NCBI GenBank assembly: GCA_010093815.1
Contig: ML996584.1
Strand: one strand, 5' to 3'
DNA length: 64,000 nt
Origin: Pseudovirgaria hyperparasitica
Taxonomy: Eukaryota
Shown: in pieces, positions 1 through 23,113 of the stretch
How positions within the stretch are numbered: the stretch's first letter is position 1
Layout: every line of letters begins with the position of its first letter
The notes under the pieces: model-generated
The model's database searches: none
What the model was told of the DNA's origin: nothing
What the model saw: the letters and a program-made list of their open reading frames with translations, nothing else
Program-made: the position numbers and the translations under genes

Positions 1-1290
1 AGAGGCATAACGGTATTCGTGGGGGAATTGTCTATATTAGTAATTATAGGCGCACCTATCTTTAATACTACTCTAATATTAGTATCTAGAACCATATATA
101 TATATATATGTCTAAGTATACTAGCTACGTCGTCTTCTATTTTAGTATCTTCTATATTCTCTTTCTCCGTATGTTCCGACGGTAACTATAACTATATCTC
201 TATAGNNNNNNNNNNTCTAAGTATACTAGCTACGTCGTCTTCTATTTTAGTATCTTCTATATTCTCTTTCTCCGTATGTTCCGACGGTAACTATAACTAT
301 ATCTCTATAGCTAGTGTGTTTGCGCGTAGATAAGCTTCGCTAGGCACGACGATATTTATAGATAGATTATCTATATCGGTAGTTATAGCCGTACCTATCT
401 TCGATACTACTCTAATATTAGTATCTAGGACCATGTATATATATATATATNNNNNNNNNNTTATAGATAGATTATCTATATCGGTAGTTATAGCCGTACC
501 TATCTTCGATACTACTCTAATATTAGTATCTAGGACCATGTATATATATATATATCTAAGTATACTAGCTGCGTCGTCTTCCATTTTAGTATCTTCCACG
601 TTCTCTTTCTCCGTATATTCTAATAGTAACTATAACTATATCTCTATAGCTAGTATGTTTACACGTGGATAAGCTTCGCTAGGCACGACGATATTTATAG
701 ATAGATTATCTATGTCGGTGGTTATAACCGCGCCTATATTCGATACTACTCTAATGTTAGTATCTAGAACCGTGTATATATATATGTGTCTAAGTATACT
801 AGCTACGTCGTCTTCCATTTCAGTATCTTCTATATTATCTTTCTCCTTATATTCTAGCGGTAACTATGTCTACGTACCTATACCTATAGTATCTATATCT
901 AGTTTAGCCTCTATTATATCTATGGTCGTAACCGTCGGTACTAACTTACTATTTATAGCCGCGATATGCTAATTGAATTCTCTAGTAACGGTTTCCTTAA
1001 CTATCCTATAGAGTATAGTAGTATCTATACTACTAGTTTTAAGCTCTATTACTACTTCTTTACTTACTATCTTAATAATAGTAGCCCTATATATATTATA
1101 ACTTATTTTAGATATTAGGTATGGGCCTCGGAGGTACTAGATGTAAGGTAGGAGGGCGCTAACGCTTAAGGCCTCCGCACGTTATATATACGTATTACGG
1201 TTAGCTATTCTATAGCTAGTAGTTAAACTAGGATAGTCGTAACTCTCGTTATGTCTATCTATTTCTATATACGACTTAGGCCATAGGTAG
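1..1290 (-). pseudogene. RIP-degraded unknown gene with 78-aa (234-bp) tandem repeats; runs off the window start
   Basis: Continuous minus frame (...HIAAINSKLVPTVTTIDIIEAKLDIDTIG...EDTEMEDDVASILRH...) with only TAA/TAG stops. 234-bp period (CTAAGTATACTAGCT at 556 and 790). Confidence 0.5.
30..870. repeat. 234-bp tandem repeat (~3.5 real copies; contains two 10-N scaffold gaps)
   Basis: Unit recurs at 111/216, 555 and 789. N gaps at 206-215 and 451-460 are each flanked by identical 95-bp overlaps. Confidence 0.85.
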
Positions 1291-2099
1291 TAAGACGGCG
1301 TTAATAGCGATAAGATATAAAAACTAGATTTAGGCGGTAGAAGTTAAGTCGCCACGTTTAGTAATTATAATATAATTTCGATAAGTGCGGAGGAAGTAAA
1401 GTATATAAGTAAATGTTTAATTATTAGAGTGGATCTTATACGATTACAGTCGTAGTAATAATATAGCTAGTAGGACCGGGCGTATCCCGACATGAACTAG
1501 ATAGACGCCGGCTTATACTAGTATTGTAATATCTTAACTAAATATATATACTATAGTTATATAGCTAGTAGAATCGGGCATATACTAATATATAGTAGGT
1601 AGAAGCCGTCTTACGTCGGATCGTATCGCCTTAGCTAAGTACGCACGCTACTCTTACTACCTCTAGCATCCTTTTCATTATTCTATTAGTCTTTAAAAGC
1701 GATATCTATATCCTCTATATCTAAGGTACTTTTAAGGCTTTCGAAGTTACTATCTTTAGAGCTTATAGATTGGTCTCGCGACTTCCCGGGTACTAATAGT
1801 AGTATATATAGTATTACTAGAGGAAGGGTTAAGTCGTTTAGGTGATGCTATCTACTACCTATAATACTATCTCTATGGGTATCTCTACCGTTATAGGCGG
1901 TGGCTTTCTATTACTATTATTATACTAATTATAGCGAGTATAGTATTAGGGACAGAGGGGCGGATTTATTCGAGTGTAACCTATATATAGCCGTCTATAC
2001 TATCATGTGTTAGTCGCTGGTTTATATTTCGTTTTACTTCGGGTATACTATCTATATCCTATCTAAGGCCGAGGAGTATTATACTATTACTATATTCTA

Positions 2100-2872
2100 G
2101 AATATATTTAATTACTAACTATAGGAGCCATCTAATATCTACCTCTAGTTCCGTTTTACTTATTATATACTTAACTACTAGCATGATAGAATATATAGTA
2201 GCACGGCTCTAGTTAAGTGCCCTCCTAGTCTTCGTTACGTATTAGACTCTAATTTACTATATAAATACTACCGAATTAATACACGAAGCGTCGCTATGGT
2301 CTTTCTACTAGTTAGATATAGGTACTAGTATTTCGAGGAATGCGTTATCGTTAAACCTAATCGTGAATTTGATTTTTCTCGTAGTATATATGTTAGTAGG
2401 CTATAGAACCGCTATAAGTATAGGCTATAAGGTCGTGGTATACGAGAGCTATAAGGTCGTAATAGATAGGGGTTATAAGGTCGCAATAGGCGGAGGTTAT
2501 AAGGTCGTGATAGGCGGGGATTATAAGGTCGTAGAATATAGGGCTATAATTACGCGCCTCTTCTTATACTCGGAGATAGTTTTTCTATAATATACGGTTT
2601 TCTATACTATAGTGCGTACCTAGTCGTAGATATGGTATAGCGCCTTTATCTCTATATACTCTACTACTCTTTCCTATACTACTAGGAATTCGCCCGCTAC
2701 CTTATTAATAATCTTATGTACTCTTTTTACGCCGAGCTCGTTCTTAGTTCGACGTCTATAGTCTACGAGTAGAGTAGCCGTATATACTTCTATATATAGC
2801 TACCTTATACGCGCCTCCATAGCTTCACGCTTTACTTATATATCTAGGCTTAAGATACGAAGTAGTATTATA
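2100..2872 (-). pseudogene. RIP-degraded unknown gene with 21-bp (TTxQPPx-like) repeats
   Basis: One minus frame reads ~255 codons with only TAA/TAG stops. 21-bp repeats GGTTATAAGGTCG.. at ~2420-2535. Boundaries approximate. Confidence 0.5.
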
Positions 2873-3937
2873 GTAATTACTATATTCGGACGGTTACTTT
2901 ATTATAGAATTAGATTTAATATATTAATTATATGTAGTTAACGTGCGTAGTTAATATAGTGTTTATAATTTATGGACTAATTATATAGTATACGCATGGT
3001 ATATCGTAGGCGTAAGAAAGATAGAGGTATAGATCGGACGATAGAGGTAGAAGCCGGAATAACAAGGCACCTACTAGGTAAACCTTGTTTATGTCCTTAT
3101 TATTCCTTAAACACACGTTTATAACACGTACGTAACTTGGCGTGGCGTGGTCGGGCGTGTAGTTATTTACTTTATATTATCTAATACCCTTAATAGAATT
3201 GGATAGCCATGATTCTTATCTTATAATATTATATCATAGGCGACTACGTCTAGGACGGTATATGGCTACGTATATACGAGGTGCCGCGTTAGTCTTATCC
3301 CATTTTATATTCATATACTTATCCCTAGGTACTCTCTAAGTATTATAAGTCTATATTTCGTCGTATTCGAGTGTCGTATCCTTCCATGCTTTTAAAATAC
3401 ATGATATTTAGGTTTACTATATCCCGTATATATCATGGTTAAAGTCTAAAGGTAGAGGCTTTGATTAGGGCGTATATTTTTTTATATTTTCTCTTTAGAT
3501 AGTAATATCTCCCGATATAAAGGCTAGAAGTAGTTTTAAAAGTATAAAGGGGATAACTAAAGGAAGCCTACGTTATTAGGCCGGGGCTCACGGTAGATAT
3601 AGAATTATATTTATTTCTTAATCGGTAGGTACTAGTTAACGTGCCTAGTGGCGCCGTATTATCTAATAGCGCGTCTATACTAGAGTAGACATAATAGAAA
3701 TACCCTTAATGGGTCTTTAATAGAGCTAAACTATCTACCTAGTAGGATATTATAACTATATCTAAAATAGATATAGAGGTATACTTACTAAGAAGCCGTG
3801 ACTAAGTAGCCCTAATATATAAGTCTAATTATATACTATTACTAATTAACTTCTATGTCTTTATATATCGTAATACCGCCGTCTCGGTCGGTATCCTCGT
3901 AGTCTTTATCGTTCTAGCCGCTAGTAGTTACTTCATT

Positions 3938-4022
3938 AGTAGTATTAGCTCTAGTAGTATTAGTTCTAGTAGTATTAGTTCTAGTAGCATTAGCTCTAGT
4001 AGTATTAGCTCTAGTAGTATTA
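3938..4022. repeat. 15-bp tandem repeat (AGTAGTATTAGCTCT, ~5-6 copies) in the helicase C-terminal tail
   Basis: Directly visible tandem array; pentapeptide repeat in the minus frame after the third knuckle. Confidence 0.85.
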
Positions 4023-6570
4023 ACTAGATTATTACTATTTATACGTGCTGGTAATTTAGTACGGCTGGGATAATAACGCTAAGTATAACTAGTAGTCCTA
4101 TAATTATAGTAAAACGTACCCGTAAGCGTCTTGGGTTTAGAGTAAACATTAGCTTTATAGCCGATGTCCTAATAGTTATTATATATAAGCGTCGACCCTC
4201 TTAGATACTTAATAGACTTATATCCTTTAACATTATATTTATAGTAGACTAGCGGCTTACGGGGCTTAGTACCATCGGTAGTTTATTAATCGCTTCGTTC
4301 TCCCCTCTCTCTAATACTAAGTATAGAGCGACCGTATTAGGGATTAGGTATATTAGAGAGTAGAGGGAGGCTATCTAGGTCGGGGGTCGTGCACGTGTAT
4401 ATCGCATGAATCTTAGAGTACTTATTCTATATCTTGCCGAGTACGCCGTCTAGGACTTTCTACCTCTTAAGAGATATAAAGTTAGTAATAATAACTATTA
4501 TCTATTTAGCGCGCGTAATAGTAATAATATTATAGTTTACTTCCGAGAGGAAGCCGAAGCGATTAGTTTAGACTAGGTCGATAAGGACTATATCGTTATT
4601 ATAACCCTAAGAACCGTCCCATGAACGCCATTGGACAAGCTTCTATACCGGCTTAGGTAGGGCATTAAATCGAGCTTTATCCGCTGCGGCAAGTGTAGTT
4701 AGAAGCGAGTTCCTAACTATCCCTTTAAACAGATTACGTTAGGCGGCGTATATAGAAATATAGAGTACGTAATCGAGTGCGACGCTATAATAGAAGAGCT
4801 TAGTAATAATCTACTAAGTGAAACGTAATAAGTCTATATTATATATTAAGTTATTTACCGTGTACACGTGATCCCCGTTAACGTTAGTATATATAACGTG
4901 TTAATAGCCGTAGATTCTAAATATTTATCGAACGGTCTCTGCGAGTAGTATATCGACATTATTTATTATATAGGGCGAGGTCGTTAGCTCACCTAAGTAA
5001 GTAATTAGCGATATAACGTTTATTATCCTAGGAACTAAGCGTTCTAACTCGGTAAGGCGAGTAGTTAGGAAACTATATTATATCTAGCGCTTTATGAAGG
5101 AGATCCTCTAGTTCACGGTCTATATATTAGTACTATTACGCTAGTAGATGTCGAGCTAGCGTAGGTCGCTAATATAAATAAATGTTAGTTACTATTCTAT
5201 AGTAGTATAATTAACGATAATCCTAAGTGTATTACTTTTAAGGATACACGTAGCCTCTTCTATTACGACCAAAATCGGATATATATTATAGACTACCTTG
5301 GCGATATTTATAATATATAGGGTCCCTATATAAATCTAGGCGTGGATAGTAACTAGGTCCTAGGTAGCGAGGTATAGCTTATTTATTCTATTATACTCCT
5401 TCTTAGGCATGTCCTTATTACGAGTATAACGTTTATAGATAGCGCGTAATAGCCGAGCCGTTTCTTTCTCGAAATTCTTAGAGATCTATTTATATTGGTA
5501 TTAAGATTTAACGAGTCTAACGACCTCGAGCGTAATATAACTAGTATATAGTTTCTATAGACGAGCACGGGGATCCGTGCTATATTCCGATAGTCGTTTA
5601 CTATAGTCGGCCTAGGCTTACGCGAGGATGGCACCGCCTATTATATTATTCTAGGTTGGCCCGATAAGAGGGTCGCCGCGACGAGATAGTCTAGCTATAG
5701 TAAAGAAAACCTCTCGATTAACGGCTTCGGGGCATCTTCGAAGAACGACCGGTATCTTTAGAGACTTATAGCGAGTAAATATATTACTTATATATTTATA
5801 TACTTTTCTTATAGCGTCGTTATAGGTTTCGTTAGTTAGGCTAATAATAATATATATATATATCCTATATATTTAGGTGGAACCTAGCGTAGGGAGGTGC
5901 GCTATTATATCGCTAGATAGGATAACTATCTTAGTAGTATAAGCGATAATAGGAGTACCGTTTATTTCGTTAATTAGAAGTATAGCTAGTAGTAGACGAA
6001 GCTATAAATAGCTCTTCCTAGCTTCTCCATAGCCATAAAGTAGAAACTAAGCCCTAAGTACGTCCGTTGCCTATATATAGGTATACCATTATTAGGGAGA
6101 TAGTTCCGAATATATAATATCCTAGAGATCGTGGAATCTTTTATAATCTTTAACGTAGCGGTTATAGTTAACGGGTTAAAGATTCAGGTAGTTATTACTA
6201 AGTATTAGGTTCTATACGGAGGGTAGTAAAGGGGATAGAATACTAGAGTGGACTTTAGACGATATTAGAAGTATATATATATCGGTGATAGGGCTAGTAA
6301 TAGAACCTTCGTCGCTAATAATATTATGACTATATTCTATATTCGTGTCCTTATTATTATCTAGGGATATAGATAATTTAGAAAGAGTAACGAGGGTATT
6401 CTAAGACTCTATACTATAATCTAGAATCTTATCGTTAGGGTTAGGGGACCTATATATTAGAGATATAGATACCGAGTCCATAATAACATTAAGGACTATC
6501 GTATTAAACGCATCCTAAGCGGCGTGGTCGTCTACGCCGCTATCTCTAGAAGCTTATACGGCGTAGTAGG

Positions 6571-6772
6571 TGTAATGGATATAACCAAGGTGTTACTGCA
6601 ATGGTAACCAAGATATATTATGATTTAACTTAGAGAGAATAGGGATAAGCCGTATGGTTATAGCTTTAAGTATAGTCTTAAGCGAGGTCACGTGATACCC
6701 CTATACTAGTCTCCATCCGTCCCGGCTCCGTTATATAATACTAGAGACAAGGCAAAGCCGAAGTCCATAATA
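6571..6772. mobile_element. Solo LTR (202 bp) inserted in the helicase relic
   Basis: Starts TGTAATGGA and ends TCCATAATA (RIP of TCCATAACA), an imperfect terminal inverted repeat. Flanked by the 5-bp TSD GTAGG at 6566-6570 and 6773-6777. Confidence 0.85.
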
Positions 6773-8224
6773 GTAGGTTAGTTTCTAGCACGTATTAATA
6801 CGTTACTTAGTAAGCTTATTATAGGTTTATACGCTAACTAAAGCCGGAACGTCCGTGAACTCTATAAGCGTGGTAAGGGACGACCTAATTATACTTAAAC
6901 TAGTATCGCTAGTCCGAATAAAATGTTTAGGACGAGCTCGAGTTATATTAGTAACCGTATCCATTAATATAATCGGTATCTTAGGTACTTTAGGAGGACG
7001 CCTAACCTTATTAAAGACTTTTAGAGCGAGGCATTCGAATAGGAGGACGCCTAGGCGAAATTAAAGGACTTTAAAGCGGTATACGTCGTTATTATAATCC
7101 TTTAAATCCACTTTAAGGTACCCACGACTACCTAGTTCCATATAATAGAATCCTTTCGTATCGATAGGATAGACGATAGCTAAGAGCGCCCGAGTAATAC
7201 CTAAGAGCTAGATATACCCGACGGTAACGTCTTGGAATTAGAATAATAGGAGATCCGTCTATTCGTCTTATAAGGTACTTATAGCGATATATATTAGGTA
7301 GTCAAATTTCTTATCGAATAACTCGCGGTAGGGAATAGAGATCTAGGGCCAAGTGTCCGGCCTACTTATTATACCGTATTATATATAGGGAGTAATAACT
7401 TCTATATACTATGAATTAATCGGATCGCTCTCTAGTTTAAGCTTATTATTAAAGCTAGTAAGATCTATAGGGTTACGTAGCGGTAGTAAGATACGAACTA
7501 TAGTATAAGTATCTAGATCTTCGAAGAATTGCTTTACTCGTTTATATATTATATCGGGTCCGACATATAATAGAATAGTAAAACCTATACTAAGAAGCTC
7601 GCTAGCTATAAGTTCGATAACCTAAAAGTCGCGAGGGTCTTTATAGAGGCCGGGATTAATATATAGTATATTGGCTTTATCCGCTTCGCTTATAATGAGA
7701 TTAGAAAGTTTAGAAAAATACTTAATGAAGTCGCCTACTTACTTAACCTTAAAGATCTATACTATAGAGTGGTCGGACGATAGGAGGATGTTAGTATAAT
7801 TGAAGCGGAGTAAGCTTATTAAGGATACTAATTTCCCTTCGTTAATCTATTAGAAGTAAGCACGTAACTTAATCTAAGAGCGGTACTTAGGGAATTCAAG
7901 GAATCTATATATATAACTAATCGACTCTTCGAAGCCGTAACCTTTACTATAAGCCTTAAATACTACTAGCTTAAGCTAGGCTTGAGTTTTCGCTTATTTC
8001 TACTTAAGTCTATCTGTTTCTCTACTAATACTATAGACATTCCTAAAGGTTAACTATAGATCGCTCTATATAAGAGAGATCTAATAGATAGCGTAAGTAG
8101 GAACGGGAGCCTTACTACTTTAGACCTTCTTAAGTTTATACTCGTCGTTAGGACGGTAGTTACTAGTAAGTATACTAAAGATAAGTGGTTTATTATCGGT
8201 TAAGATGGTAGTCGTATCGTAAGC

Positions 8225-8570
8225 TTCGACTTAAGTATAAGGCTCGGCTTAAACGTAAGGCTCGGCTTAAACGTAAGGCTCGGCTTAAACGTAAGGATTG
8301 GCTTAAATATAAGGATCGGCTTAAATATAAGGCTTAACTTAAACGTAAGGATCGGCTTAAACGTAAGGCTCGGCTTAAACGTAAGGATTAGCTTAAGCGT
8401 AAGGCTCGGCTTAAACATAAGGATCGGCTTAAGCGTAAGGCTCGGCTTAAACGTAAGGATCGGCTTAAGTATAAGGCTCGACTTAAATATAAGGCTCGGC
8501 TTAAAGGTAAGGCTTAACTTAAGTATAAGGCTCGACTTAAACGTAAGACTCGACTTAAACGTAAGGCTTA
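8225..8570. repeat. 18-bp tandem repeat (GGCTTAAACGTAAGGCTC, ~19 copies) encoding (E/D)PHVQA-like hexapeptides
   Basis: Visible array. The frame GAG CCT TAC GTT TAA GCC is continuous with the helicase frame; the ORF-track FKPSLT frame is a different one. Confidence 0.85.
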
Positions 8571-10079
8571 ATTACGTTAAGCGTAGACTAGTCCTAAACA
8601 TCGCCAAATATAACGAGTTCTTGATCCATATTATAAACTATAAATATAACCTCGTTAACTATTATATGGAATGGACCTTAAGGGTTAATAGAGTCGAGTT
8701 CGACGTAGTATTCGTATATAGTCGTAATTAACACGGAATAAAGTGTAGAAGGTAAGATTTAGGTTTAAAAACTAAGATAAGTAGAGGAAAGGTTTATAGA
8801 AGTTTTCTTTTATAACATAGGGACGACCAAAGGAAGCTAAGATTAATATAGGCTAAAGTAATAGTAGCTTAAGTAGTATATAAAGTGGGGTAGTATACTA
8901 CTATTATATGAGTCTAGTAGCTCGCCGACCGAGTATATAGTATATTATAGAAGGCTATTAAATCGGGGCTTAGGTAAATATAGGTATAAGTAAATAGTAT
9001 TATATAAAAGTTTAACCGTCTGATATACTAACGCTATAGACGCCGAGCCTATCTCCTAAATTCTACGGTAACTATCTCTTCTAGGTAGTAAGATATTACT
9101 AGCCATGCCTTGTCTATTCTATTTATGGTAGAGATACTATATATCCGTTAGTATACTAGCGCACGTGTCTAACTACCGCTTAAATATAACTTGCCTTATA
9201 CTATAATACGTACTATCGAGCCGATGTTATACCGATATTCATGGGTTTATATCTATAAACTCCTCTCCCGTAATATCGAAACCGGTAATATTATCTAGTA
9301 ATAGGACCATATAAGAAGGAGGCGGACTTAGTATATCTAGTTATATATAGACTTCTACTATCGCCTTAATAACTACTACGCTAGTAGGCGCTTCCTCCCC
9401 GGCCCTAAATAGTATATAATATTAGACTTTTACACGTTCGCTCGAACTCTCGAGTGTACCGGTATTATATATTAATTCGTAAGGTAATTAGGTTATAATC
9501 GCTAGTATATTAATATCGACGGGTAGAGTAGGCGGGACGGCGGCGCTCGACTCTCCTAATATAACGTTAGCTAGCTAATAATATAATAGATAAATATACT
9601 AGTCGCGTCGTCATTAACGTCTATCGTTTAAGTAGGTAAAGCGTTAACTACGCCTATATTAAGTAGACTAGGGCGTACCTATATACTATTAATAAAAGAC
9701 CTAAATCTAGTAAGGTATCCGCCGTATATATAATACTATACGTAACTAATAACCGAAAACCTAAGATATATAAATGGTGTTATGTCCACGGAAGAGCGAC
9801 GGTATTATACCGGTATATACCGGATATACCGGCATACATTAGTATACACCGCTTAGTAGTCGTAATATATTAATATATGCCGATATCTATCGGTGTATAT
9901 ATATCTCGAGCTTACCTACGCGCGCTAGATAGATGAATCCCGCTACTATACTTATAGCGCGACGTTCCTATATGGTTAGATTATAGTTAATACGTTATAG
10001 TAGGCTTCTAAATATACCGTTTATATCGCCTACGCGGAAAACCACCCGATCTAGTCCTAAGCCTAGTACCTATTTAATA

Positions 10080-10850
10080 GTCTACTATAATACCTAGTCT
10101 AAACTATCCTTACGAAGGATTATATTACTCGACTCGCTTAGTAGAATCGGGTACTCTAGGTAGACGCGACTATACCTATAACCGCCTATATCCTCTAGTG
10201 CATCCATAGACGAGCTAATAAATTCTAATAGTTTATTTATACTAAGACCTACTATATCGCGTATTTTTATACCCTTAATATTTAACGGCGTCGTGCCATT
10301 CTATATAGCCGTTATTAGTACTAGGGTGACCCGAGTATAATCGCGGATAAGGACTATAGGCATACGTATATAACACGGCGGCACGGCTACCTTAGAAGAT
10401 ATAGATACTAGTGGTCCGACGGTTAAATAACTAGGTTAGCTAGATATATTAGGCGGGTTCGTGGGGTATATATAATATTATAATAGCTTATCTAGCTCGG
10501 GGTATCGTTTTAACGTATATAATAGTATTTAGCCAACCGCCGCTAGTTACGCGTAAATACTAAGAATATAGTATTAAGTTAATACATGGTATCTACCCGT
10601 AAAATAGTATAACTACTGTTAATAAATATATATTTATCTGCGACCGTCTATAGGCAACGCTCTCGTTTTATATGGTAGTCCTTTACTTTCTTACTACGTA
10701 GGTTTAGTAATAGGCTAGTAAATTCCTTCTAAATCAACTCTTCTATGTATACCCGAAGTTTCTACCTATCGGACGCTCTAAATATATAAAGTAGGTCGAG
10801 ACTCGCTTCTACTCGGCTATTTATTCGCGGCTGGCCGGACGTAGCTATAG
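10080..10850 (-). pseudogene. RIP-degraded unknown gene, probably two exons
   Basis: Minus frames (M)ATSGQPRINSRVEASLDLL... and ...ELDKLL..YPTNPP...VYLEYPILLSE... carry only TAA/TAG stops. Function not recognised. Confidence 0.4.
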
Positions 10851-11827
10851 ATAGACGGAATAGGGAATAGTATATATTACTAGGGTAATAGAGAGACGAG
10901 ATATATATACTATATAATAGGTGTAGGTATAACACGTACGTTACGGCTATATTAACGCGAGTAGTCTATATAGTTATTAGTAATAACTCGTTAATTTAAT
11001 GGAGGCGGGGAAATATACGGCCGGTATCCGATCCTATACTAATATAGGGTACGTGAAATAACGACGTTAAATATATAATACTCTATATATAACGTTAAGT
11101 TTACCGGGCGATGGCCCTACTCTAGTAATACTATCTATATATAATAAAAGAGTAGCGTAGTATATAGGTATAATAGGATAGTAGACCGTCTTTACGACCA
11201 CGTGGATCTACCGCTAAAGAGGAATACTATAAGATCTAGTATATACTATTATAAACATACTATTATCTATTATATTTAGGTATACTAACTCGGTATACGC
11301 GAAATATAGATAACCGCTAACCCGTCGTGGTTCGCTATCATTTAAAGCCTAACGAGTAGAACCAAGGAATAAATAGTAGAAATAGTTAGACATAAGAGTT
11401 TTTAGCGATTAGAGGATAGTCTAGGTAGCTTAAGGGAAGGATAGAGGACCTCCGCGAAGCATGTACTTATATAATATTAATATATAAATATTTAAGAGAA
11501 GTACGTAATGCTAACTATTATCTCTATAATAGATTATTATTAATTAGTACTATTATTAAGAAGAGATAGATAAGCGTAATGATAAATAATCGTAGTAGCG
11601 AACCCTTATATTAAACACGAATAATATAACGTATTAGTATAGTATATTTATCTATTACGAGAACGTACATCTAGTTACTATAGTTTCTAACGGTCTATAT
11701 AAGAACGTATACATCGATAATATAGTAATATAAGTCTAACTATACTTATAAGGCTAGGGAAAGAATAAAGGAAGAGGAGGAGAAATATTAGAAGGGGGAG
11801 ATACTTAAGGAAGACGTTTCCCTAGTA

Positions 11828-11965
11828 AGAGCGTTATATACCCGGTATATACTTATTTATACTTATTTATATAGACTCGTTATATACCCGGTACTTATTT
11901 ATTAATAGACTCGTTACGTATCTAATACTTACTTAACCATAGACTCGTTATATGCCCGGTATCTA
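11828..11965. repeat. 34-bp tandem repeat (AGACTCGTTATATACCCGGTACTTA..., 3-4 copies)
   Basis: AGACTCGTTA recurs at 11873, 11907 and 11941, with a degenerate copy at ~11828. Confidence 0.8.
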
Positions 11966-12469
11966 ACGAGGCATAAACGCGAATAACGAAAATATTAGAA
12001 TCGGGTACGAGCTAGGTCTAGTAGGCCTAGAGACATAGTTTAGATTTTAGGGTATTAATATATATAATCTATCTATATTAGGTTAATACTATCCGTGTCT
12101 AGTTCCACCCGTGAATAAGGATTCTTTAAGTTCTATATACCTCTTTTAGAGGCGTAGAGTTTTTATACTAGCTAGTAATTATTAGGTAATAAGGAGGTGC
12201 ATCCCTAGATACTCCTTAGCTAAAATTATAGATAGTCATTAAATATAAGCCTTTTATAGAACTAATCGTAATAAACCACGATTATTCCTTAGAGATATCC
12301 TAGTATAGGATACGACTATCGAGTACTACTATATATAAACTATAACTTCCGCTATATACCGGTATATGCCGGTATACTACGGTAGACGGCGGTAGATAGC
12401 GATAGACTTACGACACGCGCCCGTGTTTTAACGCTACGGTCACGTTTCGTCTATTTATAGCCTAGAAGT

Positions 12470-15400
12470 CTAGGTTATATACCTCGTTATAGATCCCCTA
12501 ATTACTATACGTGTTTAACTAGAATAAACTATTTATAACTAACTAACGTAATATAATCTATATAGGGCGTAGGATATACTCTAGCTCGTAGACACGGAAC
12601 CTATCTATCATACGAGTCTTATTACTAGACCTTTAACCCGCTATATATAATAGTATAAGGCTACTAATAGTGTCGATATTACCTCTACCCGAGTTATTAA
12701 GTAGTTTAACTAACGTATCTAGAAATCGCGCCGCTATACTACTAGTTACGTCGATACTCTCCGTATTATATACCTCTAGAAATATACGGACTTTACTAAC
12801 CCGCTTCCCGTTAAGGTGGTTATTACCCTTATTAAACTCCTATACTATTATATAATTCTCCCTAGCCTTACTACTCTTTTACTAGTTATAGGTATACCTT
12901 ACCTAAATCGGGTCGAAGGCCTCTATAGATATATCTCTATCTAGTCGTATCGGCACGTATATAGTCTTATATATATAGATAGAAAGGACCCGTGCCTATG
13001 AAGGGTCCTTTTTAATACATTCGATATTCGTACCTTTTAATATATTATCTCTAATAAGCCGATTACGATAGTTACGTATAAAGGGTGTAACCGTATTAAG
13101 TAATATAAAACTACTACTATATACGTCGTGGAGGTCGCCGATAGTAGTCTAGTAGAATATAGATAGTCTATGGCTCTATAAGACGTAGAGTGTATATTTA
13201 CTCCGGCGTGGCTCCTTTAGAATACGCCGCTGGCCGACTAGCTTACGTGTATTATTAAGCTACTCTAGGCTAGGGGCTACTAATATACTAGTACTAGCCG
13301 CCACCTCTATACTACTAGAGATTTTAGTATTTATCGTGCGTATATCTACTACTAGTATCTACTATAGAAACGTCTCCCTCTTATTTAAACCTTAATATAA
13401 TTCCTTTACTACGATATAAGATTACTCTAGTAGCTCTACTAATATTAGATATAACGAACTATAGTGTTTAATAGTATTAACTAGGTGCGATAATATATAG
13501 AACTTTAGAAAGTTAAAATGATTATCCTCCGATTTATCTCCACGATATAGTATAAACTAGTATTTTAGGTCGTCTAAGCGTAATATAGTCTCTTCTAAGT
13601 ATACTAGTATCTACGTATTATACGTATAGTACGCCGCTAATATATATATATATTAATAACCGCCCGTACTACGCTTAGGAAGTGTTAATTATAATATAGG
13701 AGCGGTTTAAACGCGACTATAAACACTACTAGTATACGCTTAAACATTGCCCCCGTCCATTATATTACTAAAGTTATATATATAAGTAGGTTATGACGAC
13801 CGAATACCCTAATAGACGCGAATCGCTTATTAATCGCCTTCTTTACTCGTTCTATAGGGGGTATACTAGTAAATACACCCTTTAACTTATATCCCGTACG
13901 CTCTTAATTAATAATATACGAGACTATCTAATTAAACGTATGTTCTAATATACCCTTATATAGTTAATATAGAATGTCCGGAGCGACCGCGCGGTGTATA
14001 TTAACTCTAGTAAGTAACTAGGTAAAATTATCTAATGGCTCTATCCACCTACTAGAATACCGACTCTTAACCGATTAGCGAATATAATAGCCCTATACTA
14101 CTAGCGCGAAAGACGTCGACGAAAACGATAAGACACCGGGTATACTTATCCCATTATCTATCTTACTACTAGTGTACTTGCTACCGTAGCTATTAGTTAT
14201 TAACTTATAATATATACGGTAAATCTATTCCTATAACGACGAGTATATATGGAACTTCTATATACTAGTAATGGCTTCTCGTAGATACTATCGTCTGTTA
14301 CTAGGGACTATATATATTAGATATATATACCGATAGGATACACCCGTGATAAGCACCTACTCCGGAAAATCTATAATATATAAAGCTAAACGCGGATAGT
14401 ACTTACGCGAGCCGCTATCGGTATATAATACTAATACTCTAGTACTCTATATAGCCTATAACGCTATATAATAATTAGTATAGTTAACGACTCTATCATA
14501 GGCGGACATACGGGCTAGAACTTTACTTATAACCTAATAGAACATAAAGCGATTCGCTACCGTTTCTAGCTTAACTACTAGTAATAGAGTAAGTAGTAGA
14601 AATAATAGTAGACTCCTAGATAAGCGGACGTTTAGTAGTAGATTATAAATAGATAGGTAGACTAGCTATACTACTCTATTACTACTATAGTTAGTAAGGT
14701 TTATCTTATCCGAAGATAAAATAATAGGGATAATAATGGTACTATCCGGAATAGTAGCGTGTATATCCTACTAACTATCTACTATATAGGCTTTACTATA
14801 TACCCGGTTACCTAAACTAGTAAATTATCATACCGGCTTAAACACGAGCTTACTAGTAAACGGTTAGTATCTAAGAAGGAATTCCACTAACGTAAGCGGA
14901 TCTCTATACTAGTATTCGACTATAGTAGTACTAAATATATTATAGCTACGCTACTAACTTTCGTACGGTATCCCTTTAGGGTAGTATAATAACTACTTAC
15001 GTACGATATTAGATTTTAGTATAAAAAGGTCGGGGGGTATAGCGGAAGTCTATTTAAGGATAGTAGTTAATTTATCGTATACTATATTCGAAATACCGAA
15101 CCGATTCGTCTATATTATAAGGCGCTCTATAAACTTACTATTGAATTAACCGAATCGGGCCTACTAAATTAGTTACTACTATAAACCTAGACTATATATA
15201 CTTACGTCGGACGGATTATTACGTCTACTCTAGTCTACTATAATATATATACCGTTCTCCTCTTCGAACGTTTTTATTAAATATATAGTACTAGACGCCC
15301 TTATCGCTATAGACATAGTATTTCTACTATATATATTAGACTAATATACTAAATTAGTACTATGGCTACTAGTAACGCCGTCTATAGATTCTAGGTCCGA

Positions 15401-15770
15401 AATAGAATTAGGGAAAATAGTAGTATCTTTATATAGGGTAATATTAGTAGTAGAAGTATCTAATTTCATAGGCTCGGACTCCTAATTAATACTTAATAGC
15501 TAAACACTAATAGAGCGAACTAAAGAGTTCTATTAACTAATATAACTACGAGTACTAAAGCCGCGCCGTGACCCGGTCGATAGTAGTAGCCACGGGCCTA
15601 ATAGTTATAATAATAATGGCGATACGGTAAGCTATGCTCGTCTATACGGTTCCGAGTTATGGTGCCTACGGATTATATAGTATATACTACTAATCTTTCT
15701 ACTATAGTATTAGTAGGAGACTACGGCCCGTAGTATCTCGAGGTATAGTTACTATAAAGGAAAAATACTA
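12470..15770 (-). pseudogene. RIP-degraded Plavaka-family transposase
   Basis: De-RIP motifs in order: TIPDGTIVIPIILSSDKTNLTNYSGNRVAWPVYLSIYN (~14645-14755); CYPRLALYIVDFPEQVLITGV..CPIC (~14310-14400); VAPDILHQLYKGVLEH (~13940-13990); HFNFPKFHMLSHLVDTIKHYGS...E..H..KELYQGSNK (~13380-13520); C-terminal FWLNTYSDWGIYNEVY (~12480-12530). Ends approximate. Confidence 0.88.
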
Positions 15771-16007
15771 TAGTATAATTATTAGTGGATGGTAATAATA
15801 CGGTATACGGTAGATATTCTAGGCGTATACCGGAAGAAGTTAGGTGTAAGCCCGTTGAAAGCCCGATATATACCTACTAACCCCCGACTTCTACCCGGCT
15901 CTTAGCCCCTTGATTTCTATATACGCTCGCTTAAAATTATTAATAATAACGCGTAAGCATTACGCGTCTATAAAAACACTATATTAGTCTACGCCTAAAC
16001 CTTTATT

Positions 16008-18147
16008 ATGTCTACTAGCTAGTTATTATCCCGCTACCTAATATTATCGCCTAGTAGGTTACCGACCTATTACTAATGAAAATATCTACTAATCTCTTAT
16101 ATATCTTCTCTATAGAACCTCTAACACGGAAGACGGTTAAGGGACTATCTAGCTACCGTGGCGGTAATACTAATAGAAGATAATCTAGTAACTATAGTAA
16201 ACTAAACGGGATAGGTAAACGAAGATGCGATATAACGTAGACACGTATTAGTATTAATAATAGGGACTTACACGACAGCCATCGACATAAAAAATATATA
16301 TATATATACCTAGCTTATCTCGACGCGTTTGTTTATCTACTAATAACCTAGTAGTCTAGGTATACCGGTAGCGAATATAGTAGTAACGCCCTATACAGCT
16401 TAGACGTTACGGTAATATTCTACTATAATAGTAACTAGGGATATAACGGCCTCACGTCCTCTCCTCTACTATATTAGCTATCTAGCTCGATAGAAGAAGG
16501 TAGAGAAATAGTAGTAGAGAGGGAACTAACTATCCGTGAAAAGAGGCGGTTCTATAGAGATAGTCTCTAGTCTTACGAACGAGACCGGTACCTCGTAATA
16601 ATAGAGATTTCGATTACTATGACGTTTTTAGGCCGGTTACCACTAGTATTTAATTGCCTTAATATATGGCTAGATAGTAGCCTAGATAGTTTTAGGATAC
16701 TAGTATAATCGGCCTAGATAGCCGCCGGAGATATTAATCTTAGTAGCTACTACCTTAATTATAATTTATAAAACACACCTCCTATCTATATTATTACACT
16801 AGTAAAGGAAGATATAATAGACTTCCGTTACTAACTCCTCTCTAGAGTTAGATAGATAGTATCTAAATACTAGAACTAGGAGATAGCCAAGAAGAGAAAA
16901 GCTAGTATAAGTAACCTAATATATAATAACGCGTATATAGGAGTAAAGGTATGTTACTTACGTCATGTTAGATATATTACTAATTATTAGTATAATACTA
17001 GCGTAACTTAGAAAATGTTTATAGGGCTAGTAGTAATTAAGACTCTAAAGTTAGTTCTACTATAGTCCCTAAGATTCCTTAGATTAAAGGAGTACTATAG
17101 TAGTATATTCTAACCGATCCTACTATCCACGATTACTATTATATATATTATAATAAGGCATGCTCTTAACGAATATAGTAGCGGGCGGGCGCCGAACTCG
17201 TCCTTCGGTCGCTATAGATTCGCACGCTCTCTACTAATACTAGGTATATATATATACCTTTATCTAATTATATACTAAATTATATAGAGGAATAGCGAGC
17301 GCTAAGCCTAACATGGTCGAACTAGGCGCCCTACCGTATCGACTATATTTAAAAATCGCTAATAGCATCGGTATTTATAGTACTAATACTAATTAACCTA
17401 GACACTATATATATAAACCTATATAAAGATAACCTAGATAACTTCTCTAAAGTAGATATAGATAACTTAGACGAGAGCGAGGAGTCTAAGCTATCGGGTA
17501 ATATAAGTATATACTAAAGTTATAGAGACTATATAGATACTAACTACTATGAAAAGGATGAGTCGGATACTCTAAACTAGTTAGATGAGTGCCTCGAATC
17601 ATCTTATACGCTATTAGATATGGGTAAGAGTTCTATACTACTAGTAGTGGCTACGGATAAGATTATACTATCTCGGGTATTAAGTATAGACCCGCTCTAA
17701 GTAACCGCGGGAACGGTAAATAATAGTATATATATATATAGTATGAATAAGTCTATTACTAACTTATTATCCCTAGTTATAGCTACCTTAACTAGTAGTC
17801 TATCTACCCCGACCGATACTTAAATTAAAATAAAGTTAGATGGTGGCGGACGTTCAAGTCGGGTCTTTAACCTATATATAAAGAGTATATACTTTTAAGA
17901 GAAGTCGGATATTAGTATATAGCTAGGGAACTATATAGACTACCACGAGGCCGAATAGATAATATAAAAGAGAATAAAAATAGTAACTAGAAATATAGAG
18001 GGAAGTGTCTAGTGGAAGAAAAGGTTATTAAAGGTAGTTCTAGATAAGGACACCTTTTAATAGATAAAGAACACCGCCTAAAGGCAGAAGAAAGGAAGGT
18101 CTACTATATTTTATTATAGCTATATAGTCGGAGAGAGCTTAGAATAG
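16008..18147 (+). pseudogene. RIP-degraded multi-exon gene divergent from the transposase; DUF6532-like central domain
   Basis: TATAAAAA at 15969 and ATG at 16008. Intron-like GTATGT...CTAA...TAG at ~16949-16990. Segment PILLSTITIIYIIIRHALNEYSSG (~17115-17185) resembles the P.P..TIAL...AI..AL.EW.TG pattern of DUF6532 from memory. Acidic linker and basic C-terminal domain. Confidence 0.55.
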
Positions 18148-18510
18148 TACTATTTAATTTAAGTTCCTAGTCTAATTAATTTTTAACCTCTACTCTCTAT
18201 TATATACTATCTTTCTAGTATTAAATTTAAAGACTATAATTAAATATACTAAAGATATAATTTAGAATAATAAGATATATAGAGTTATAGAGATACTTTA
18301 GATAAAGATATTACTTTAGAAAAGAGACTTCTATTAAAATAAATAGAGTATATAGAGTAGATAGAGTAGGTAGAGTAGATAGAGAAGCTAAAATACTATA
18401 TACTATTTATTCTATAAGAGTAATTAGTATATAGTAAATAAGTAGTACTAGTAAGCTAATTAGTATTAAGAGAATAACTAGTACTAATTATCCCATTAGT
18501 ATAAACAGTA

Positions 18511-18690
18511 CGTTCGGTATAAACGGGACGTTCGGTATAACTAGTACGTTCGGTATAAACGGGACGTTTAGTATAACTAGTATGTTCGGTATAAACGGGA
18601 CGTTCGGTATAAACGGGACGTTCGGTATAAACGGGACGTTCGGTATAAACGGGACGTTCGGTATAAACGGGACGTTCGGTATAAACGGAA
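18511..18690. repeat. Subterminal 18-bp tandem array (CGTTCGGTATAAACGGGA x10)
   Basis: Units start at 18511, 18529 ... 18673, about 140 bp inside the proposed element end. Confidence 0.9.
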
Positions 18691-18832
18691 TACTTAGTAT
18701 AAATTGTATAAAGCCGTCCCGTTAGGATAGATAGTAAGTAGGTCCGCCTAATGGATATAATGGGATGAAAGAATACTTAGGGAGTACTTAGGAGTACTTG
18801 GAAGCGCTGTATCTTTCCTAATATAGCCCGTG

Positions 18833-21064
18833 ATTAGAGAGAAGTAATATATCTCCTACTAAAAATATATCTATATACTACGAATATATATCGGGTAGCG
18901 TGTCTTTGCTCTAATTATTACTATCGTCCTTATCTTTATTAATAATCGATAAGGACGTAAGATAGATTAGCGATAATTAGGTCCGCACGGCGAGATTCTA
19001 TACCTCCTTACTAATAGTTATAACTTACTAGTATAATTTACTATAGTATTATTAGAATATTAATATCTCCTTCTAAAAATTAAGGATAGGGTTTAGGCGT
19101 CTAAGCTAAGGTATCCCTAGAATTATATTCTATTAGCTAATATTAGCTATGATAAATTTATTAGACATCTACTATTTTATTATCTTTAAGTTATAAACTT
19201 CGTAATTCGTTATAGCTTTATCTAAAGTTCTAACTTTATATCTATTAACTATAATAGTTCGGCTAACTTTACTAAGATCGTACGATAATCTATACTCCTT
19301 TATAAGAATCGACGAAATATAGTTATCTTCTATACTAGTATCCACGAGGGCCTATATAGTTTTATTACTATTTACTATAGGTAATAATACTTTTAGTAAT
19401 ATTAGGTCTTTACTCGCTAGAAGGCGCTACGGCTCCTCCTAAGTATATATAATTTAGCTAAGGACGCGGTTAGGTCTTATATACTAGTCTATTCTTTTTT
19501 TAGATTCTTATAGTTAGATAAAATATATTCTATTTCTCTATACTTATAGTAATAAAGTGCGCTATAATCCTACTATTTTATAATAGGCGTTATATTTAAG
19601 TCTATACCTTATTCTTTTCCGTGTTAAGAAGTACCACCTTAATTATTTTAGTATCCTCTTAACGCGTTTCTACCCCGATTTACGCTCTTCTAGTACTAAT
19701 TATAGTAAGGTTACTCTTAATCGAACGTATTTAATCGACCTCGTTTCTAACCCGTATAGAGTTTATCGGTTTTACCTAGAGAGCCACGTTCCTTAAGGAT
19801 ACGGTAGTATTTATTAGCTTTCTCCTCTAATTCGTGTAGATAGTTAAAACTTAATAATACTATTTCTAGTCTTTCGTGGATTAATAGAAGTAGTACTTCG
19901 CGAAACTAGAATATACGAATATTTTTCTATAGTATAGGGATATTATTCTATAGGTTTTAGAGGTATTATAGTAGTTAAGTAGGTGTCTAGTTCGGTCGTT
20001 ATACTACGCTTCTTAACTTAGATAGTGCCTTTCTTTTACGTTCTCTATCTGTTCCGAGGGTATTTAGTATAAATATAGCTAAATATTCCTAGGTTATCGT
20101 AGATAGTAGCTATACTTCCTTCTATCTATTCTATTAATTATAGGATTATAAGTCTAGGTATCGTTCTCTAAATAAAATATATTATACTTTAGTAGAAAAG
20201 AGTAGAGGGTTATCGAGGAAGTACTTTTCGTAGTCTCTCTTCTAGTCTTTCTACTCCTTTTAGTTCTTCTCTATAAATATAGTCGGGTCTTTAGATTTTA
20301 GTATACCTAGGGAAGAAGTAGAGTAAATTAGTAACGAAGCGGTCGGATATATAGTGGATTATTATAACTCTAATAGTAGGTGAACTAATTCCGCCTAAAT
20401 TAGTATAGGAAGTCGTCTATCTACTATCGTTTAGCGTAGTTCTTTAAGAGACTCCTTAAGTTCTTATCTCTTTACGAGGAGTTTCGCGCGTTCTATCTAT
20501 TCTTTAAGGGTTTAAATCTCTTAAGTCTAATTCGTGACGTATTTCTAAAGTTTAGTAATAGTTTATTATAATACCTCGCGTGGCTCTACCACGACTTATT
20601 ATCCGACTTTATATTATTAGAAGTTACTCGGCGTATCTACTATTTCTTTATCTAAAAGCTCTATGATTTAGTCTAATATTTCTACTTCTCGGTTAGAAAC
20701 GGCCGGGATTAATACCAATTATAGAGGATCCCTATTATTTAATATAGTATTACTTATCTCTATAGTAGATCGTGTCAACCTTCTCAGTTCTAGTTAGACT
20801 ATCTTAACTATAGTACTATATAGAGAGTAATTTAAATATAAGAATAGGGTTATTAGATAGTAGTATAGTTAGATAGAATAATAGGGTGTATTCTATTATA
20901 GAATAAATTACTACCGAACCCTTTCGGTAGGAATCCGAGAGTATATATATAAAGAGACGCCGATCTATCTAGTACGTGACTATTTACCGCCCTTTACGTT
21001 ACCTCCTAACCCTATTAGCTAAGGTACGTGTAGATTAGGTTCTATCTAAGGCTAAGTTCTAATA
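18833..21064 (-). mobile_element. Ty3/gypsy LTR retrotransposon 5' part (LTR, gag, protease, start of pol), RIP-degraded and interrupted at 18833
   Basis: Reverse complement of 61831-64000 (18895-21064, same length). Protease ALVDT(G) at ~19330-19352. pol reads LPD(V)YS(Q)Y(A)D(V)F(S)... up to 18833. LTR ~20837-21064. Confidence 0.88.
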
Positions 21065-22345
21065 ATATACTCGACGAATAGTACCTAAAATAGATATATA
21101 TATAGACTATTACTAGCTAGCTAAGCGACTTACTTATTGGCGAGTCGGCGACGAGTAAGTTACTTAACGAGTTTGTAAAAAAGTCTTCTAATCTCCTTAA
21201 CTTTAGTAACCTCTCTACTATCTCTACCTTATCTAAACCTCTCTAAATTAGTAACTACCTTCTACCGGAGCGTCTTATTAATATAGTACCTATCTATAGT
21301 ATATTTAAAGAAGCGTAGAGCCTACTAATTAGCGTAGCTATATATAAATATAATATAGAGAAAGTTCTTAAAAGTTCGAGATTACTAACGTATCTAGGTA
21401 TACTACCTACGAATCTATACCTTTATTACCGCCTATACAAGCTTAATAGAATTAAAGTTAGATAAGTATAGTAGCGTATACCGTATAATATAGCTAGCGC
21501 TAAGTATAAGTGGCTTAATCTATTAGTTTATATAAAGTGCGAGATTATCTATAATAATTATTATTATACGCCCGGGGTATTTTACCTTAAGGGTAGGTAA
21601 TAGATATACTTATAGCTAGGTATAGAACTTATCCGTTAAGAAATAACCTTCCTTTATCTAATAGTAGATAAAACCATTAGCTATAATAGCTCTATATACG
21701 CTATACGTAGGTCCTCGATTAAGAGTACTAATCTTAGTTAGAGTCTATCCTTTTAGTACTCTAGCTTAACGCCTCTATCTAATTTTCTTATTAAAAATAA
21801 CCTTATCTAAGAAGATATATAAGTCTACTAGTAGCTCCGTGATATCCTTAAGGTATAAAGTACGCGCTATCTCTAAGCGCGTACTACTAATACGTTTTAA
21901 TAGCTTACGATCCTACCCTTACTCGGATAACTCTTTAGATAAAAGCTATTTAGATATAGTAAGATTAAACTCTTTATATATCTATCTAGCTATCTTATTA
22001 AGGTATAGCTAGCCCTTACGAAGTAGTCTCTTAAGTAGTTATTATATTATATAATCGCTTAGTTAATAAGGTAGACCATAACGTATTAACCATGGTTTAT
22101 TTCTCTATCTATATATCTTAAGGTTAAACCTTATTCTATATACTATATTCTTACTAACTTTAGTAATAGCGATAATCTTATTAATAGATATATTATGTTA
22201 TAGAAGGAAGTCGATTCGTCCGTATACGGAATCAGGATAGATAATACTCTAGGGTACTATATATACACGCGTTAGTAAGTTAAAAATACTAAATATTATA
22301 TATACTAACTCTTATATACTATATTATATAGTTATAGACTCTATA
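21065..22345 (-). mobile_element. Tc1/IS630-type (DD34E, DDE_3) DNA transposon relic
   Basis: Minus frame from ~22260 de-RIPs to ...IFLDE.IFNEK.GWRR.AR.PKG...IIMDNLALH...YTPPYSPDFNPIELVWAVMK.WIRR, with 34 residues between the second D and the final E. About 1.3 kb long; TIRs not resolved. Confidence 0.85.
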
Positions 22346-23113
22346 TATGTGTAGTGCGGTGACGATGCCGTAAAATGTTAATTATATATAAAAACGCGTG
22401 TTGGTGGCACAGACGTGCATCGGGCGCCAAGCTTTCCCATGTAACTATGGACAAACGGATCCTTCTGCAGACTCCTTCCGACATGCTGCAACACCCTCGT
22501 TCCATGGTCCACGCTGACAGCCCTGTTCAAACGCTCTATGATCCAATAATCCGAAGTTATTACCCGGTACGCTCGGAAACGGGTAGCGGCAGCGTGTGAG
22601 AAATAATATGCCATGTGCGTGAGAAGTGTGAATGCCAGGAAAGATGAAATGCAAATATCATTCGAAAAGTAAAATCCTCTTCACCGTAACCAATAGCCAT
22701 TCTCCTATGTGGAGTATGCTGCACGCCAAGAAGAACAAAGGGGCACAGTGTAACCATCCTATCCTGTCGTTGATCAAAACAAATGCTCACGAATTGACTC
22801 AATAGTCCTGTTTGATATTGCTTCTTTGCAGCATCCTCACCGTCCATTTGGGCCTAGCACAGTCTGGAAGTCTGGATTGTAAAGCCGAGCCCAAAAGTCG
22901 TTGTACATGATGTGCCGCTTGCACTTGCTCAATAGCTGGAACTAGTGGCGTATAAGCATGCTGCACATTGGAAGTCCAAAGACTCGACGACTGATTTCTG
23001 GGTCAGACAAGAACGGTCATCCGGGTTCCTGGAACGAAATTTCGGTGAGACTATGGTGATTTGTGTGTGTTCACTCGCTTACCGGTTCGCCTGAAGATAG
23101 CAAATCGTCAACC

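Follow-up and report, generated by a model that had tools for sequence, protein, structure and literature searches.

Accessory genes in transposons are already known, and the DNA transposons named Academ encode a RecQ-type helicase. Viral superfamily 1 (SF1) RNA-helicase domains are said to occur in insect retrotransposons (Lazareva in 2015 and Morozov in 2017, as cited in PMC6338049). According to the accessible part of the citing paper, insect retrotransposons acquired such viral SF1 helicase domains as accessory modules, which were weak silencing suppressors in a plant assay. Plavaka elements with a captured TET/JBP gene (PlavakaB) have been described (Kojima 2025, PMC12730594), and the accessible sections of that paper present TET/JBP as shared among unrelated transposon superfamilies and read it as an aid to escaping host silencing. 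Here, we describe a degenerate gene in a 64,000-nt stretch of contig ML996584.1 from Pseudovirgaria hyperparasitica (assembly GCA_010093815.1), hereafter the window. The gene encoded a Upf1-like helicase with three putative Cys-Cys-His-Cys (CCHC) zinc knuckles and lies on the same strand as a Plavaka transposase domain within a many-copy block. Our current reading, to which we assign a probability of roughly 65%, is that the gene is a passenger of a large, many-copy Plavaka-type transposon and that it was killed by repeat-induced point mutation (RIP). More tentatively, its product may have served as an RNA helper or chaperone. What is new here is the Upf1-like, knuckle-bearing helicase as a transposon accessory gene. 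A literature search found no such helicase described in Plavaka or in fungal long terminal repeat (LTR) elements; Iyer et al. 2014, which lay outside the search, may bear on this point.

The helicase gene and its family

A first-pass annotation, made from the sequence of the window, had placed a single intronless frame of about 1550 codons at 3843..8720. The feature was confirmed, on the minus strand (8719..3845). There, one frame of 1625 codons does run through without a frameshift, but it is interrupted by 94 stops (48 TAA, 46 TAG and no TGA), and three consecutive stops follow directly after residue 1625. Residue numbers below refer to P0001, the translation of this frame with X at stops. 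No open reading frame (ORF) of at least 100 aa overlaps 3843-8720, where stops occur throughout all six frames. RIP converts CpA to TpA and TpG to TpA, which turns CAA, CAG and TGG into TAA or TAG, and stops of the TAA and TAG kinds only are thus the pattern expected of RIP. The RIP indices of window positions 1-22000 are extreme, with TpA/ApT at 1.55-1.78 and (CpA+TpG)/(ApC+GpT) at 0.10-0.27, as compared to 0.52-0.85 and 1.12-1.45 over positions 22001-60000. AT-rich sequence with such indices occupies 1-22000 and 62001-64000, and the helicase lies inside the 22-kb RIP-mutated block. The composition of P0001 (Cys 6, His 16, Trp 6 and Gln 7 versus Tyr 138) agrees with this, since an excess of Tyr with few Cys and His is expected from conversion of TGY and CAY to TAY. 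The window copy is a dead RIP fossil without present activity.

The assignment to the Upf1-like SF1B helicases, already proposed in the first-pass annotation, was borne out at the domain level. Residues 1222-1413 of P0001 match Pfam AAA_12 (E 2.4e-7, 31 bits, cut-off 27). AAA_11 is not listed in the Pfam scan of the RIP-damaged read-through, but the hhalign alignment to the intact family spans both halves of the core. In that alignment, a profile of six intact proteins covers residues 958-1508 with a probability of 98.8% (E 8.5e-17), and the family-specific stretches DPR.R and DLV.T.R.GFL.E are common to P0001 and its intact relatives. The helicase motifs occur in the right order, as had been claimed, although the Walker A motif fits only after RIP is undone: the Walker-A-like GYGEARKS at residues 896-903 becomes G-x-G-G-A-G-K-S once RIP transitions are reversed. 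A log-odds alignment had placed Walker A at G-T-P-I-I-A-Y-T instead; RIP cannot account for that stretch, and GYGEARKS with an insertion after it is preferred. Farther along are motif II in VVIEEA (1151-1156), ISDLRXL (1183-1189) and ITITRAK (1399-1405).

Plain tblastn was stopped by the in-frame stops and missed even the helicase. To allow for RIP, the frame was scored with each codon weighted by the probabilities of its pre-RIP residues (RIP-aware score; log-odds, expectation -0.71 per position), without reconstruction of a sequence. P0001 scored 184-220 with family members, for which shuffles gave ~44-56. Lower scores were obtained with the ZNFX1-like proteins P0009 (165) and P0016 (130), with ZGRF1 (137) and with SMUBP-2 (106). 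The family profile aligned over residues 620-1437 with a score of 352, and its helicase columns scored 336 in the helicase frame versus 53 and 44 in the two remaining frames. P0001 as read agrees with the family in 20 of the 52 invariant columns that aligned, and RIP transitions could account for another 30.

Motif II deserves separate comment. It was pointed out in the first-pass annotation that the motif reads E-E-A (codons GAA GAG GCT) and that GAA cannot arise from GAY through a RIP transition (C to T or G to A); both statements are correct. The further step, which used E-E-A to link the gene to ZNFX1, Hrr1 and Aquarius, found no support, as 7/7 intact relatives read D-E-A at the aligned column. 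The motif region of the ZNFX1-like P0009 reads V-E-E-A-A-E. ZNFX1-type proteins are not the closest relatives by the RIP-aware scores above, and ZNFX1 ranked third when the family profile was compared with solved structures (E 6.7e-37), after Upf1/NAM7 (8e-46) and Sen1 (1e-37) and ahead of Aquarius (1.2e-33), SMUBP-2 (5.8e-33) and DNA2 (4.1e-28). Foldseek also returned Upf1 as the top match of an intact relative (E 4.2e-21), on a low-confidence model. No ZNFX1 or NFX1 domains were found in the Pfam scans of P0001 and of its intact relative in the retrotransposon L001 (below). As judged from sequence comparison, the family is small, unnamed and Upf1-like, and no evidence connects it with the ZNFX1/Hrr1 branch.

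Direct searches with the damaged protein were sparse in returns. A phmmer search of 1.84 billion representatives with P0001 gave eight matches at 21-26% identity (best E 1.5e-5), of which 8/8 contain AAA_12 and 7/8 AAA_11. The same damaged query had no match in the PDB by phmmer, and a word-index search with residues 170-1570 had none at E up to 1. The best score in the ESM Atlas was 0.87, to unnamed clusters and below the level that counts.

The three CCHC knuckles of the first-pass annotation were recovered on the C-terminal side of the core. All 12 ligand codons are now TAY (Tyr). With no Cys or His left at these positions, and TAY being the RIP product of TGY and CAY, we infer the knuckles rather than read them. 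The loose pattern [CY]x2[CY]x4[HY]x4[CY] was searched across the 22-kb RIP block in all six frames (~44,000 codons) and occurs 11 times; 3/11 occurrences are clustered in a 177-nt stretch of the helicase frame (4246-4070). The residue before the His position is G, G and S in these three, versus G or S in 1/8 of the others. In addition, the triple-knuckle module of P0012, the L001 protein, aligns to residues 1488-1555 with a score of 71 (shuffles 34.7 ± 4.6), and that of P0014, another intact relative, to 1491-1529 with a score of 66 (33.3 ± 4.2); 0/100 shuffles reached the score in either case, and the other five frames scored at most 40 with these modules.

Ahead of the core, the first-pass annotation saw a large unrecognized domain. 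This description still applies to residues 648-895, which have no match (residues 600-900 alone score 36 versus 40.6 ± 6.0 for shuffles), but not to residues 299-647, which align to the family's own N-domain. The RIP-aware profile score of this region is 93, versus 47.4 ± 8.8 (maximum 73.6) for 40 column shuffles and 34 and 36 in the other two frames. AlphaFold models of intact relatives are poor, with mean predicted local distance difference test (pLDDT) values of 54.4 and 48.8, and the first ~200 residues of the N-domain have no fold in them. The only confident part of the N-domain model with mean pLDDT 48.8 is a beta-barrel just before RecA1 (pLDDT 58-83). It matches SETX (8ftm_B, Z 6.6, root-mean-square deviation (rmsd) 6.4, 128 aligned), Sen1 (8ram_O, Z 6.5, rmsd 3.3, 91 aligned) and Upf1 (2gjk_A, Z 6.0, rmsd 3.7, 101 aligned), scores that are tied with those of unrelated FNR-type barrels. 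Based on these models, the barrel is tentatively the usual Upf1/Sen1-type 1B barrel.

Tandem repeats flank the domains at both ends of the frame (Table 1). Another frame of the 18-nt repeat is stop-free, so that its coding in the helicase frame is only putative. In the intact relatives, acidic tails with GW/WG dipeptides follow the helicase in 4/5 lineages (tails of P0012, P0003/P0011, P0005 and P0006 compared). The dipeptides lie at or near the extreme C terminus in three lineages, and Gly stands beside 5/11 tail Trp. In the window tail, the TAG stop after S-G (residue 1602) may derive from a Trp or Gln codon. On this sequence pattern the dipeptides are candidate Argonaute hooks, which we note as a lead only.

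The Plavaka transposase and the many-copy block

The Plavaka transposase domain lies 5.6 kb upstream of the helicase and on the same strand. The PF18759 match takes in profile positions 40-237 of 325 and residues 324-523 of the minus-strand frame 8702-15901. Pfam was run on the plus and minus frames of 8701-15900 and on the minus frames of 15601-19200 and 461-3901; in these frames flanking the helicase, Plavaka was the only match, and neither reverse transcriptase nor integrase was found. No Pfam match was obtained in the six frames of the 5.6-kb spacer between helicase and transposase (8720-14300).

Contigs of two runs from one source sample (X1 and X2) were compared with positions 2500-22400 and their pieces placed at a likeness of at least 80%, which gave 24,577 pieces for X1 and 10,411 for X2. 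In X1, the summed depth was 18,028-38,871 in every bin of 2500-18435 and equal over helicase and transposase; it was flat over this block in X2 too. Single listed contigs were 211-401 deep, and the summed depth is ~60-120x that figure, although summed contig depth is not the same as copy number. The differences among the block contigs (X1) comprised 1312 transitions versus 27 transversions. These data fit a single unit that carries both genes, is present in many copies and has diverged by RIP. The term transposon-borne, used in the first-pass annotation, is supported by the same-strand Plavaka transposase, the flat many-copy depth and the near absence of differences other than transitions. It is very probable that the gene is a dead Upf1-like helicase of an unnamed family within a many-copy block, and likely that it was cargo of the Plavaka element.

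Since RIP strikes any duplicated DNA, the same damage could have befallen a duplicated host helicase gene, or a segmental duplication, that lies beside a Plavaka remnant by chance. Distant Penicillium relatives of the family are located on Mb-scale contigs and have host-gene-like names, and the clusters of intact relatives occur on only 1-2 contigs each, as a host gene might. However, the 24,577 pieces of X1 are 80-99% identical to the block, the depth over the helicase is far above that of single contigs and the same as over the transposase, and the intact relative in L001 sits inside a mobile element. We therefore regard a host duplicate as highly improbable and retain Plavaka cargo as the better description.

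The ends of the block are less clear. The published Plavaka termini (TGT..ACA or CATCA..TGATG) were not recognized around 18.4-19.1 kb, the one candidate end, and the other end of the element probably lies before the window start. No terminal inverted repeats (TIRs) or target-site duplication (TSD) were found; the one long inverted pair detected consists of 44-nt arms at 73%. A contig joint from 4189 to 15695 was considered as an internally deleted copy, but its shorter side is only 21 letters, too weak to use. Just inside the depth change at 18.4-19.1 kb, an 18-nt tandem repeat in 10 registered copies occupies 18463-18721 and is a candidate subterminal repeat of the element. Beyond it, the summed depth over 19100-21091 (290,878-353,449 in X1) is more than 10x that of the helicase and Plavaka block and belongs to a different, far commoner repeat. 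Near the window start are longer tandem repeats at 17-911, with 105/234-nt spacing and broken by two 10-N runs (206-215 and 451-460), and a 24-nt tandem repeat at 2399-2542. In two further runs from a second sample under the same species label (X3 and X4), the helicase and Plavaka had next to no cover and parts of 21.1-22.4 kb were covered; the element may be strain-specific, or these runs may be thin.

Table 1 Features of the helicase gene and its carrier block in the window.
Feature	Position	Strand	Details
RIP-killed helicase gene	3845..8629	-	First in-frame Met (P0001 residue 31) to residue 1625, then XXX
18-nt tandem repeat, 5' end of frame	8146..8624	-	18 registered copies, period 18; hexapeptide E-P-Y-V-stop(TAA)-A
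Family N-domain	6779..7825	-	P0001 299-647 aligned to P0012 159-521
Upf1-like SF1B helicase core	4409..6034	-	P0001 896-1437; Walker-A-like 6034-6011, motif II within 5269-5252, motif VI 4525-4505
Three degenerate CCHC zinc knuckles (putative)	4070..4246	-	4246-4205, 4183-4142, 4111-4070; C-x2-C-x4-H-x4-C spacing
15-nt tandem repeat, C-terminal tail	3922..4037	-	Six adjacent copies, period 15; pentapeptide, T/N/R/A-rich
Plavaka transposase domain, RIP-mutated	~14333..14932	-	PF18759, E 5.6e-25, 88.7 bits (cut-off 26.3)
Many-copy repeat block with both genes	2500..18435	.	2500 is the start of the compared stretch; block may extend past the window start

Intact relatives and a Ty3/gypsy-type carrier

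Intact proteins of the family provide a view of the gene before RIP. P0002, P0003, P0005 and P0006, which are four of the eight phmmer matches, and two cluster mates share a conserved N-domain of ~450 aa that precedes the helicase; these six proteins make up the profile aligned to P0001 above. The catalytic columns (Walker A G-K-T, motif II D-E, motif III Q and the motif VI arginines) are invariant in 7/7 intact members, and the intact proteins thus look like working ATPases. A word-index search with intact P0012 returned itself and one Penicillium protein. The family alignment (A2) returned 50 proteins at E up to 1e-5, among which only P0012 and P0014 are family-level matches and the remainder are ZNFX1, SMUBP-2, ZGRF1 and similar proteins. 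A scan of viral contigs gave five loci with generic matches; four cover 42-100 query residues in the Walker-A region, and the locus L006 has 26% identity over query residues 503-995.

When metagenome contigs were scanned with the family alignment, one locus emerged, L001, with three same-strand ORFs. ORF1 (908 aa) has no Pfam match at E up to 0.01, zf-CCHC included; the second encodes a Pol with RVT_1, RNase H, integrase and chromodomain; and ORF3 encodes P0012 (1323 aa) in an intact frame with zf-CCHC (E 4.6e-10), AAA_11 and AAA_12. The translation of P0012 has three N-terminal CCHC knuckles and a C-terminal octapeptide repeat. Direct repeats of 148 nt that are 99% identical (391-538 and 12767-12914) bracket all three ORFs, with a purine run just before the 3' repeat and TGGTAGC just after the 5' repeat. 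The leader of L001 contains a 132-nt tandem duplication (539-802), the LTR-like repeats are very short, and the knuckles sit in ORF3. On this domain content and layout, L001 (391-12914) is an intact-looking chromovirus retrotransposon of the Ty3/gypsy type with the helicase as its third gene. For this one locus, the intact homologue lies inside a mobile element, an outcome in favor of the first-pass annotation, which would have been refuted by single-copy syntenic host genes with no transposase neighbors. P0014 is 37% identical to P0012 and also has three N-terminal knuckles, whereas P0003 and P0011 (41% and 40% identical to P0012) both begin after the knuckle region. The position of the knuckles differs from that in the window copy, where they follow the core.

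The sole intact locus thus has the family member as ORF3 of an LTR retrotransposon, which raises the question of whether the window helicase is part of another element, perhaps one of the gypsy type like L001, that inserted in or beside a Plavaka copy. That no Plavaka termini bracket both genes is in keeping with such an insertion. However, Pfam found no reverse transcriptase or integrase near the helicase in the frames scanned, and in a RIP-aware scan of six frames of 1-22500 the Pol of L001 scored at most 69 (shuffles 64 ± 7) while the L001 helicase scored 185. The depth is also flat over helicase, spacer and transposase. A separate element is accordingly very unlikely. With the window helicase taken as Plavaka cargo, the sequences indicate that the family is carried by two unrelated transposon classes, Plavaka and Ty3/gypsy.

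Proposed role and comparison with known systems

Carriage by two kinds of element suggests that the helicase helps mobile DNA in general. The protein before RIP would have been ~1,600 aa long, with an N-terminal peptide repeat, the N-domain (probably including a Upf1/Sen1-type 1B barrel), the SF1B core, the three CCHC knuckles and a repeat-rich tail. Because the two carriers move by unrelated chemistry, a DDE transposase versus reverse transcriptase and integrase, a role in strand transfer is most likely not the answer. The target of the helicase would instead be a feature common to both element types, namely single-stranded transcripts. Bound to single-stranded RNA through its knuckles, the protein would use its 5'-3' motor to strip or remodel complexes of RNA with protein or with other RNA, with the outcome that element RNA is chaperoned or is shielded from host RNA surveillance and silencing. 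We put forward this RNA-protection mechanism tentatively, as possible rather than probable. A stronger version, in which a helper family with a Upf1-like motor, three nucleocapsid-type knuckles and an acidic tail rich in repeats hops between Ty3/gypsy and Plavaka in the manner of TET/JBP and suppresses RNA surveillance or small-RNA silencing, is rather unlikely in our estimate; here silencing or decay factors would be stripped from element transcripts, or the host Upf1 would be outcompeted.

The helicase might also act in transposition itself, by opening donor or target DNA, resolving R-loops or aiding reverse transcription. The Upf1-like group does include DNA and R-loop enzymes, with Sen1, SMUBP-2 and DNA2 among the solved relatives of the profile, and CCHC knuckles such as those of retroviral nucleocapsid bind single-stranded DNA too. 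Helitrons, according to the accessible part of PMC6431247, need a helicase to move. Yet carriage by both a cut-and-paste DDE element and an LTR retrotransposon is hard to fit to one such mechanism, and the Plavaka and LTR-retrotransposon literature, in its accessible parts, names no helicase among the proteins of these elements. We consider a direct part in transposition unlikely and favor the role of an RNA helper.

Several observations weigh against a Plavaka passenger gene with an RNA-helper role. Neither TIRs nor a TSD were found, and the block probably extends past the window at one end; with no termini, the unity of helicase and transposase rests on same-strand adjacency and flat depth. 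With E-E-A in place of the D-E-A of all intact relatives, the window copy may already have been inactive or a variant. A zf-CCHC domain was not found in 6/8 intact family proteins, and the distant Penicillium relatives P0007 and P0013, on their Mb-scale contigs, may be host genes. L001 is the sole intact locus examined; no TSD was found there, and its 148-nt repeats are without the usual CA end. Finally, that the substrate would be RNA rather than DNA and that silencing would be affected are points we infer.

If the RNA-helper role is correct, the family would be an RNA-level counterpart to the known anti-defense genes of transposons (TET/JBP and the viral helicase domains), and the intact ORF3 of L001 would be a concrete protein for assays of quelling, meiotic silencing by unpaired DNA and nonsense-mediated decay. 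The window alone is a smaller matter, since its copy is a fossil.

In comparison with cellular helicases, the family shares the helicase core, and possibly the 1B barrel, with Upf1/NAM7, Sen1/SETX, ZNFX1, Aquarius, SMUBP-2 and DNA2. It differs in that Pfam found no CH domain, NFX1-type fingers or nuclease and in that identity is 15-25% with no orthology; the triple CCHC module, like the N-domain, is specific to the family. The knuckles themselves resemble those of retroviral and Gag nucleocapsid proteins in their C-x2-C-x4-H-x4-C spacing, in the G before H and in their tandem copies, but are attached to a helicase and not to Gag.

As in Helitrons (Rep/Pif1-like) and Academ elements (RecQ-type), a helicase would be encoded by a DNA transposon. 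Unlike in those systems, it is Upf1-like and not of the Pif1 or RecQ type, it is unfused to the transposase, and its DDE carrier should need no helicase. The viral SF1 helicases of insect retrotransposons, as described in the accessible part of PMC6338049, offer the parallel of an SF1 helicase as a non-essential retroelement accessory. Those domains are alphavirus-like (Viral_helicase1) and fused into the polyprotein of long interspersed nuclear elements and LTR elements, whereas the family of the window and L001 combines the cellular AAA_11/AAA_12 core with an N-domain and three knuckles in an ORF of its own, and is found in fungi-type elements and in a DNA transposon too. The word "helicase" does not occur for Plavaka in the accessible portions of the text and Table S1 of PMC12730594. 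The TET/JBP Plavaka elements, so far as that paper could be consulted, share with the window block the PF18759 transposase, a large multi-gene fungal element and an accessory gene that recurs in unrelated transposon superfamilies; the accessory gene of the window, however, encodes a Upf1-like helicase with CCHC knuckles and not a dioxygenase.

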